A stretch of 36,413 bases of DNA. Source: a virus. Its lineage: Duplodnaviria; Heunggongvirae; Uroviricota; Caudoviricetes. Location of the stretch: IMG/VR virus record IMGVR_UViG_2724679172_000015. One strand, written 5' to 3'. Of this stretch, positions 12,797 to 13,321 are shown piece after piece (position 1 is the stretch's first letter; the number at the start of each line of letters is the position of its first letter). The notes under the pieces were generated by a model, which saw only the letters and a program-made list of their open reading frames with translations, ran no database searches and was not told where the DNA came from. The translations under genes were made by a program, and so were the position numbers.

Positions 12797-12810
12797 GCTT
12801 TAAAATCCTT
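12797..12810. repeat. Direct repeat copy 1 (GCTTTAAAATCCTT)
   Basis: Identical 14-mer at 12797-12810 and 13308-13321 (16 of 17 identical when extended), bracketing the P-loop gene. Confidence 0.7.
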
Positions 12811-13237
12811 ATCCCGTCTGAATTCCAGTTACTACCTGGCGTAACTCCATCAAAACGAGCTCCTGATCGTAAACTGTTATCAGCGCCGCAATGGTGGCAT
12901 GCAGTGCATCGGGCAGTATCCAGGGTTGCCGGCCCGTAGGGCATATAACATCCAGCAGCTCATTCGTCCGACAGATACGCTCCTCGCCGTATGACAACAG
13001 GCCCTGTCCCGTGTATTCCTCTAGCCTGATCACTGTGCCACCCCGTGGCTTCTGCCAGGTCGTCAGATCATCGCCATTCATACGGCGCTCATTCTCCACG
13101 TCAGCAGCATCGACAATGACGCTGTTTCCGAGTTCCTGTTTCACCATCTCTTCTATCCGCGCCAGTACGTAACTTTTACCGCTGCCCACAGGACCGGACA
13201 CAGTGACAGTGATGACCGGATTCAGTGTGTGCGTCAT
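12809..13237 (-). CDS. Small P-loop NTPase-like protein, 142 aa
   Basis: GAGGAG RBS 8 nt before ATG; Walker A GPVGSGKS near N-terminus; candidate Walker B VIVDAAD. Confidence 0.6.
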   Translation of the reverse strand: MTHTLNPVITVTVSGPVGSGKSYVLARIEEMVKQELGNSVIVDAADVENERRMNGDDLTTWQKPRGGTVIRLEEYTGQGLLSYGEERICRTNELLDVICPTGRQPWILPDALHATIAALITVYDQELVLMELRQVVTGIQTG

Positions 13238-13307
13238 ATCGTATTCTCCTCTGTGAATAATTCATCGTTTATCCTGCACATCCCGTATCCTCGGCTCTCT
13301 TAACGCG

Positions 13308-13321
13308 CTTTAAAATCCTTC
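13308..13321. repeat. Direct repeat copy 2 (GCTTTAAAATCCTT)
   Basis: See copy 1; lies about 50 bp upstream of the first lysis gene and about 70 bp upstream of the P-loop gene start. Confidence 0.7.

Follow-up and report, generated by a model that had tools for sequence, protein, structure and literature searches.

The mosaic novel joints and the morons of temperate phages, a concept of Hendrix and Juhala, are well known, as are promoters of the Mor/C type, and the locus described here is a new instance. At the Pm promoter of phage Mu, the Mor dyad is located at -51 to -36, is centred on -43.5 and overlaps a poor -35 element (PMC4287176). Mu also has four late promoters with a related dyad, which is bound by C (PMC4287176; bioRxiv 10.1101/2025.05.02.651988; PMC4461284). 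The sequence analysed here (the window, that is, the whole stretch of 36,413 nucleotides) is a BcepMu-like, Mu-like transposable E. coli prophage, in which Holin_2-3, SLT, Mu Gp27, GemA, Gam, rve transposase and Mor domains were found. The early genes run leftward and comprise the rve transposase, an ATPase with an AAA_22 domain (4602-5795), Gam, GemA and a Mor-family activator (748-1146); the rightward late genes start with a Holin_2-3 holin (ATG at 13368), an SLT endolysin and a Gp27 small terminase. Leftward early and rightward late genes, a Holin_2-3 holin, an SLT endolysin, spanins and a Gp27-type small terminase are shared with BcepMu and Bcepmuvirus (Burkholderia phage BcepMu and Escherichia phage PhiKM, the latter a close relative classified as Bcepmuvirus). 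The window differs in the accessory cassette between the methylase and the holin, where PhiKM has a 242-aa long form of the P-loop gene and one promoter copy. At least 636 of 5426 complete E. coli genomes contain a homologous prophage, and one of the 5426 (A24) matches over all of 11700-13800.

The locus lies between an accessory gene for a SLATT-like protein with two transmembrane segments (12172-12720, plus strand, 182 aa; phrog_11791, 5e-63) and the holin, the first late (lysis) gene (13368-13718, plus strand; Pfam Holin_2-3, 1.3e-41; phrog_1528). The SLATT-like gene also gives weak matches to NF033632 SLATT_4 (2.3e-6, below the cut-off) and to a PADLOC 2TM effector (4e-5). Between the two genes, a short-form P-loop accessory gene occupies 12809-13237 on the minus strand; the 142-aa open reading frame with its Walker A motif GPVGSGKS (residues 15-22), first noticed in an earlier sequence-only reading, is confirmed. 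The gene is bracketed by the 14-mer GCTTTAAAATCCTT, which occurs exactly twice in the window, both times on the plus strand, at 12797-12810 and 13307-13320. The sequence-only reading had described this identical pair and located its left copy correctly, but had placed the second copy one position too far right, at 13308-13321. The pair is not a chance event: even when up to two mismatches are tolerated, the window contains two matches and no more, as against a mean of 0.11 in shuffled sequences, and none of 100 shuffles reached two. Extended to 17 nt (12794-12810 and 13304-13320, 16 of 17 positions identical), it is the longest direct repeat within 11700-13800, where the remaining repeats measure 10-16 nt. 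As had been described, the left 14-mer overlaps the stop codon of the P-loop gene (TAA, 12809-12811), and the right one is located 70 nt upstream of the ATG of that gene and 48 nt upstream of the holin ATG. A second motif, ATCCCGT, had been reported to accompany both copies; it is present at 12811-12817 and 13280-13286, but the offsets are unequal. The left ATCCCGT abuts the 3' side of its 14-mer and appears to be a piece of a promoter spacer found in relatives (the C-type, below), while the right one lies 27 nt to the 5' side of its 14-mer and has no support beyond chance. Overall, we consider it likely that the repeats are one working and one fossil copy of a late promoter, left beside the P-loop gene by recombination of two related phages, that is, by ordinary mosaicism.

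The right 14-mer lies within a conserved element in front of the holin gene. Of 95 related loci, a set in which the holin proteins are 66-100% identical, 91 have TTTAAAATC at a distance of 45-82 nt (mostly 59 nt) ahead of the holin ATG, irrespective of whether the upstream gene is P-loop, SLATT-like, DUF2441 or another. The full box reads NTAA-N6-TTAAAATCC and is followed by a spacer of fixed length, a weak -10 (nATGCT) and GTCTCC. In the window, this Mor-box (13300-13318, plus strand; dyad TTAA-CGCGCT-TTAA followed by AATCC) would span -49 to -31. The dyad TTAAcGCGCtTTAA at 13300-13313 ends 23 nt before the -10-like hexamer GATGCT (13337-13342, plus strand), in the consensus of which A2 and T6 are invariant. 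Across about 45 distinct upstream sequences, nATGCT begins 28 nt after the first T of TTTAAAA (29 nt to ATGCTG); the spacer varies in sequence and is constant in length. The box contains no usable -35. Downstream of the hexamer, a 5' leader hairpin, GUCUCC-N9-GGAGAC (13343-13363, plus strand; dG -9.2 kcal/mol, z -3.4), includes the Shine-Dalgarno sequence of the holin. The hairpin is conserved, double compensatory changes were not found, and an Rfam search of 11700-13800 returned no match.

The arrangement resembles Mu Pm closely: an imperfect dyad overlaps a poor -35 and precedes a weak -10 by 23 nt, with a centre at about -42.5 in the window and at -43.5 in Mu. As the geometry between dyad and -10 equals that of Pm, the right repeat was assigned to the activator box of the lysis late promoter. 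The same box architecture recurs at 20494-20539, 26411-26456 and 32712-32758, in each case on the plus strand, intergenic and before a block of late genes. The site at 20494 is located ahead of the head block, after a Mu-G-like gene, and the one at 32712 ahead of a gp25-like baseplate gene; both are kept in Klebsiella phage KP12 with changed spacers. [quoted passage not shown] TTAAWATC occurs five times in the 36 kb, at the four promoters and in the left repeat. Shuffled sequences gave no match to the four-site pattern, a figure that overstates the significance since the pattern was defined post hoc. The definition of the box, with four sites per genome, may aid the annotation of the very common BcepMu-like prophages of E. 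coli and Klebsiella.

The candidate activator of these promoters is the Mor-family protein encoded at 748-1146 (minus strand, 132 aa; Pfam PF08765 Mor, E 1.1e-43, 148 bits against a cut-off of 24.9), the gene for which ends the early operon, as is the case in Mu. There are two differences from Mu, where both Mor and C act as activators. The box NTAA-N6-TTAAWATC is specific to the phage group of the window, and one Mor/C-family gene was found among the early-region open reading frames scanned, so a separate middle step may be absent. From the activator gene, the dyad geometry and the sharing of the box by several promoters, we infer a Mu-type, Mor/C-dependent promoter with binding and activation as in Mu. 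By this analogy, the Mor-family protein would bind the right box and recruit RNA polymerase for transcription of holin, endolysin, spanin and the genes beyond. A simple sigma-70 scan of the repeat and P-loop region called no promoter, as expected for an activator-dependent promoter; this null result is not positive evidence for one. A leftward Mor-dependent promoter for the P-loop gene, using the same dyad, was considered and rejected, as the CAGGAT hexamer is at the wrong spacing (25 nt rather than 23 nt).

The origin of the left 14-mer is best understood from the variants of the locus in related prophages, among which the stretch between the Dam-type methylase and the holin is a cassette-exchange zone. 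In the common form, the A-type (AR_0067, 97.3 and PhiKM), a leftward P-loop gene for 242-247 aa lies 131 nt from the holin ATG, with one copy of the 14-mer. In the C-type (E. coli S12 and the IMG/VR loci L043, L050, L051 and L066), a single promoter copy, GCTTTAAAATCCGTATCCCGCCACATTTGTGATGCTGTCTCC, lies 75 nt beyond a SLATT-like gene and leads into the holin, and the P-loop gene is missing. The window and A24 have the SLATT-like gene, the left 14-mer followed by ATCCCGTC, the P-loop gene, a complete A-type promoter and the holin. The sequence-only reading had proposed to check whether related prophages have or lack the segment as a unit; the C-type shows that the P-loop gene with its promoter block is indeed gained or lost as a unit between lineages. 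Relatives that bear the gene in its long or short form and have the holin-proximal copy only number in the hundreds (L002, L004, L007, L013-L019 and L021 among them), and the gene starts 131-133 nt from the holin in these relatives. A 9-mer, CCGTATCCC, is common to the A-type and C-type regions, where about 0.1 would be expected.

The stretch that contains the left 14-mer (12721-12817, plus strand) is colinear with the spacer between SLATT-like gene and holin of the C-type phages, and ends after ATCCCGT(C). The distance from the stop codon of the SLATT-like gene to the start of the 14-mer is 76 nt in the window and 75 nt in S12. By blastn, 12794-12816 is 91% identical to L003 and 12757-12816 is 75% identical to L043, and the single promoter of L003 or L043 aligns to both copies in the window (the left segment, and 13301 onward). 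The left copy and the C-type phages have GCTTTAAAATCC-N-TATCCCGYC in common. The motif scan and our reading of the sequence identify the left 14-mer as the promoter-proximal half of a fossil Mor-box. It keeps TTTAAAATCC and, of the C-type spacer, the first 8 nt; the upstream half-site has decayed (CCAG as compared to NTAA), no hexamer with A2 and T6 is found at the invariant spacing, and CTGTCTCC is absent. The left 14-mer is therefore most likely a truncated, non-functional fossil of the C-type allele of the lysis promoter. Of the two origins that the sequence-only reading had offered, a duplicated regulatory site is the one that holds: the 14-mer would be a piece of a late-promoter box, duplicated by recombination between lineages, and only the right copy, which alone keeps the promoter features, looks functional.

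It is conceivable, though unlikely, that both copies are functional, with the left one serving as a decoy or half-site for Mor or as an antisense promoter that switches off the P-loop gene or adds to lysis transcription late. TTAAWATC is otherwise limited to the four late promoters, the relic points towards the holin, and a weak TTAATG-N16-TAAAAT can be read there (8 of 12 positions match the consensus). The 14-mer is also identical in the window and A24 despite differing flanks; however, at the difference of about 6% between the two, a 14-mer would stay unchanged in about 40% of cases. The relic 14-mer is better preserved than its own flanks (estimated P of about 0.1 by chance) and may retain some residual function. 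Against a functional left copy stand the loss of the upstream half-site, the lack of both the correctly spaced hexamer and CTGTCTCC, and the promoter scan, which calls nothing.

The joint at which the two lineages meet can be delimited in the window. C-type homology stops at 12816 in blastn comparisons, and A-type homology begins at 12840. The A-type block proper (12866-13367), which takes in the P-loop gene body and the 131 nt of divergent intergenic sequence, is 96-99% identical to long-form prophages. Codon alignment assigns 12818-12865 (minus strand) to the 3' tail of the P-loop gene of a short-form lineage (…LVLMELRQVVTGIQ); this tail is common to A24 and diverges from the long-form allele, and its portion at 12818-12839 could be either a diverged gene tail or filler. 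A-type sequence reaches leftward into the P-loop gene to about 12866 in the window and to about 12905 in A24, and this unequal reach points to a later homologous exchange. As the joint itself is common to A24 and the window, it would be older than their split, and as no homology is seen at the crossover, it would be illegitimate. The C-type spacer allele (GTATCCCGCCAC) is complete and widespread before the holin (L003, L005, L031, L038, L043 and L047), which argues that the C-type is not a deletion product of the window type and that the polarity is one of insertion or recombination within a C-type promoter. Formation of the C-type by deletion between the two repeats was rejected on the same grounds: the C-type spacers are complete, whereas the relic has only the first 8 nt. 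The repeats therefore most likely mark a recombination joint of two phage lineages rather than a target-site duplication.

The exact SLATT-like allele of the window is always linked to the P-loop gene, and none of its contexts is a near-isogenic empty site. The SLATT-like genes of the C-type relatives S12, L043, L050 and L066 have only 77% DNA identity to it, which together with the constant linkage suggests that the actual parents are absent from the sampled genomes. The joint occurs in one of the 5426 complete E. coli genomes (A24), and exact-pattern scans found it neither among the GTDB species representatives nor in IMG/VR.

We propose that the joint formed by illegitimate recombination in an ancestor common to the window lineage and E. 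coli A24. One partner would have been a C-type genome, broken just after ATCCCGYC in the promoter spacer, and the other would have contributed the extreme 3' end of a leftward P-loop gene from a phage of the family with its own intact promoter. The product would have the order SLATT-like gene, truncated promoter, P-loop gene, complete promoter and holin; as it holds a truncated as well as a complete promoter, the 14-mer brackets the P-loop gene. A later homologous exchange with a common long-form prophage would have rendered everything to the right of about 12866 A-type. If the two repeats recombined with each other, the resulting lysis promoter would have a dead upstream half-site, and clean loss of the gene by this route would thus be expected to be counter-selected in an active phage.

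In several respects the locus is a typical mosaic joint: an accessory gene is either present or missing between two genes that adjoin each other in relatives, the homology boundaries are sharp, the neighbouring cassette is low in GC, and the joint is non-homologous and located at a gene boundary. The GC content is about 0.44-0.45 in the SLATT-like gene and about 0.54 in the P-loop gene (0.51-0.54, like the late genes), with a step up at about 12800. It differs in that the joint lies inside a promoter, so that part of the promoter is duplicated. Unlike a classic moron, the P-loop gene has core-like GC, and no promoter-terminator pair of its own is called; it is better described as a variable gene resident at this position.

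The P-loop protein belongs to a modular family. It has the Walker A motif GxxxxGK[ST], of which G20 and K21 are invariant in the family, and VIVDAAD (residues 39-45) is the only hhhhD candidate for Walker B. The best profile match is phrog_3787 (3.6e-89), of which only positions 1-137 of 242 are covered. An exhaustive HMMER search gave 54 representatives, which mainly share a 75-aa N-terminal module (Walker A and VIVDAAD) and have varied C-terminal parts. Several homologues of 244-255 aa (P0046 and P0048) end in W..P.AVHATIAAL.T.YDQ.LVLMELRK followed by 3-8 residues; BLASTP matches both modules, and this terminal motif aligns to the very end of the window protein (residues 138-139). A more diverged version of the motif is located at the end of the open reading frame in L090. 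The window protein combines the 75-aa N-terminal module with the HATIAAL…LVLMELRK motif, and its gene is oriented divergently from the holin promoter, features that make it a member of the phrog_3787 family of accessory genes in E. coli BcepMu-like prophages. About 105 extra residues are present in the E. coli long form; the same extension stands alone in L071 and is joined to other partners in L081 and P0050/P0055. In three further lineages (L013, L017 and L034), 141-aa short forms occur with different left neighbours and one promoter copy. Among the short forms of 141-142 aa, and between these and the window, dN/dS is 0.18-0.35 at dS of up to 0.7. In the draft collection, 122 blocks list the exact 142-aa protein, and the cluster look-up has it on 58 contigs.

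The low dN/dS of the short forms and the homologues that end alike argue that the short form is a functional, complete variant. The 142-aa protein would accordingly be a complete short member of the family that ends at the natural C-terminus and not a broken gene; the gene itself appears to be dispensable (many relatives are without it) yet under purifying selection. The idea of a minimal NTPase thus survives as to size, the protein being small and apparently complete, but profile searches give no enzymatic class. Searches of Pfam, NCBIfam, PADLOC and the PDB yielded sub-threshold Walker A matches only, those from Pfam and NCBIfam covering about 40 residues around the P-loop, and the PDB sequence search found no relative beyond the P-loop. 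The scores are below the family thresholds: 13.8-15.3 bits against 20 for KAP (PF07693), less than 25 for ABC_tran (PF00005), and 18 against 27 for AAA_30. Walker A is shared with KAP-family NTPases and ABC-transporter ATPases, but the window protein has neither the ABC signature nor the KAP architecture, and its public annotation as 'ABC transporter ATPase' or 'KAP family NTPase' is not supported. Proteins so annotated at this locus are members of a small, modular, uncharacterised family. An AlphaFold model of the 142-aa protein was poor (pLDDT 55, pTM 0.32). Our best guess, at low confidence, is that the protein binds nucleotides and has an accessory or host-interaction role. A more far-reaching view, which we regard as doubtful, is that the slot divergent from the lysis promoter is a hypervariable domain-shuffling locus, in which a 75-aa mini P-loop module would have an undescribed nucleotide-dependent role in host interaction, defence or lysis timing and the fossil half-box would be retained for late antisense control.

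We initially read the 142-aa frame as a truncated pseudogene. By that account, the same recombination cut it down from the 242-247-aa gene, what remains is decaying, and the locus is junk. The partial phrog_3787 match fits this account, as do the dominance of the long form in E. coli and the many broken copies (A24 has a premature stop, the L104 copy is 112 aa long, and forms of 143, 158 and 178 aa also occur). The homologues with the same terminal motif and the purifying selection overturned it. Distant homologues end where the short form ends, the three other short-form lineages hold 141 aa under the same constraint, the exact protein is repeatedly recovered, and the additional 105 aa of the long form are a separate module. 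A decaying remnant is therefore quite improbable, and the reading of a complete short form beside a promoter fossil is preferred.

It is highly improbable that the P-loop gene is a mobile moron cassette whose site-specific or transpositional insertion duplicated a 14-bp target, the other origin that the sequence-only reading had offered: exact direct repeats do bracket the gene and gene-less relatives with a single copy exist, but the supposed target is a conserved promoter element (91 of 95 loci) that occurs once beside the same gene in hundreds of prophages, the constant distance of the gene from the holin marks it as a resident of this position, the bracketed segment has no terminal inverted repeats, no recombinase and no plausible gene other than the P-loop gene (the other open reading frames overlap it), ATCCCGTC to the right of the left copy continues the C-type promoter and is not the start of an insert, the GC content of the gene equals that of the phage core, and Mu-type transposition gives 5-bp duplications. 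Relatives bearing the gene without the flanking pair, and repeats that are parts of conserved promoter elements, had been named beforehand as observations that would refute the sequence-only reading, and both were made. The result is a clean negative in that ordinary mosaicism and a conserved promoter box explain the repeat-bracketed gene, and following the locus up as a new mobile cassette is therefore not warranted.

The 3' end of another short form, the L013 type, contains GCTTTAATAATCTT, which was considered as a second relic. It was rejected: the sequence encodes KIIKA in frame, and by our own calculation 3-mismatch matches to the repeat are expected by chance about 0.5 times per locus, which weighs against it. 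In the window, codon alignment indicates that at most about six codons of the native tail of the P-loop gene have been replaced. Its final two codons (T and G; ACG GGA) and TAA stop correspond, as the reverse complement, to ...TTATCCCGT of the relic. The P-loop gene is thus ended by the promoter fossil, and the recombination joint has provided a gene with its stop codon.

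A domain-shuffling family, seen in the related loci L071, L081, L045 and L090, occupies the slot for the gene that diverges from the promoter of the holin. In L071, a stand-alone gene (-404 to -96 relative to the holin) corresponds to the 105-aa extension of the long form (242-247 aa) of the P-loop accessory gene, and in L045 a non-P-loop N-terminus is fused to the HATIAAL…MELRK tail; L081 and L090 carry other modules in the slot. The short form, the 142-aa gene at 12809-13237 (minus strand), is damaged in some copies. The copy of E. coli A24 (2675-3061 in locus L001) has a premature stop in the tail motif, from a TTA-to-TAA change, and has also lost part of its 5' leader; that of L104 (3138-3476) encodes a product of just 112 aa.

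In window-type strains, the SLATT-like gene (12172-12720) never occurs without linkage to this 142-aa gene. The 182-aa two-TM protein that the SLATT-like gene encodes gives weak matches to SLATT_4 (2.3e-6, under the cut-off) and to the PADLOC '2TM effector' (4e-5). It may be low-GC cargo that acts as an accessory or defence effector by forming pores. The coding sequence of the SLATT-like gene contains, at 12569-12604, an inverted repeat of 13 bp without mismatches, TTGACAGTATCTG-N10-CAGATACTGTCAA; A24 has the same repeat, and it is absent from the allele of S12, an E. coli relative that lacks the P-loop gene.

Mu has four late promoters, and the window likewise has four late-promoter-like sites. 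All are intergenic and share the pattern NTAA-N6-TTAAWATC-N19-22-AnnnTG[CT]C, preceding the lysis (13300-13345), head (20494-20539), tail (26411-26456) and baseplate (32712-32758) blocks. Because the site at 32712 runs right up to the ATG of the gp25-like gene, the mRNA of this gene may be nearly leaderless. Where the lysis mRNA is predicted to begin there is a hairpin, GUCUCC-N9-GGAGAC (13343-13363; dG -9.2, z -3.4), with the Shine-Dalgarno sequence of the holin inside it. The hairpin is kept in nearly all relatives, among which no double compensatory changes were seen; in the phages of L088, L097 and L098, an unrelated hairpin, ACCACCTC…GAGGTGGT, takes its place. The head-operon leader (20535-20562) has a similar stem, CTGTCTC…GGGACAG.

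A two-gene cassette of low GC (9631-10921; 0.37-0.45) separates the gene for the CI-like repressor from the methylase; it is made up of a 297-aa gene (phrog_7651), the product of which has no Pfam match, and a gene for a 153-aa multi-TM protein. Other relatives have a different cassette at this position, with a Mor-domain gene in L014, for example; it is another exchange hot spot. The stretch of about 140 nt that follows the Mu-G-like gene and leads up to the late-promoter box of the head block (20353-20493) contains no ORF of at least 90 aa; the anti-CRISPR genes of Pseudomonas Mu-like phages sit at the matching position.

One of the loci compared, OM835952.1 (Klebsiella phage KP12 clone KP12_2), is filed under Vequintavirinae. 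The genes it carries are those of a transposable phage of the BcepMu-like type: a transposase, homologues of Mu gp29 and gp36, and the same lysis cassette. The record is probably a co-assembled prophage that has been mis-classified.
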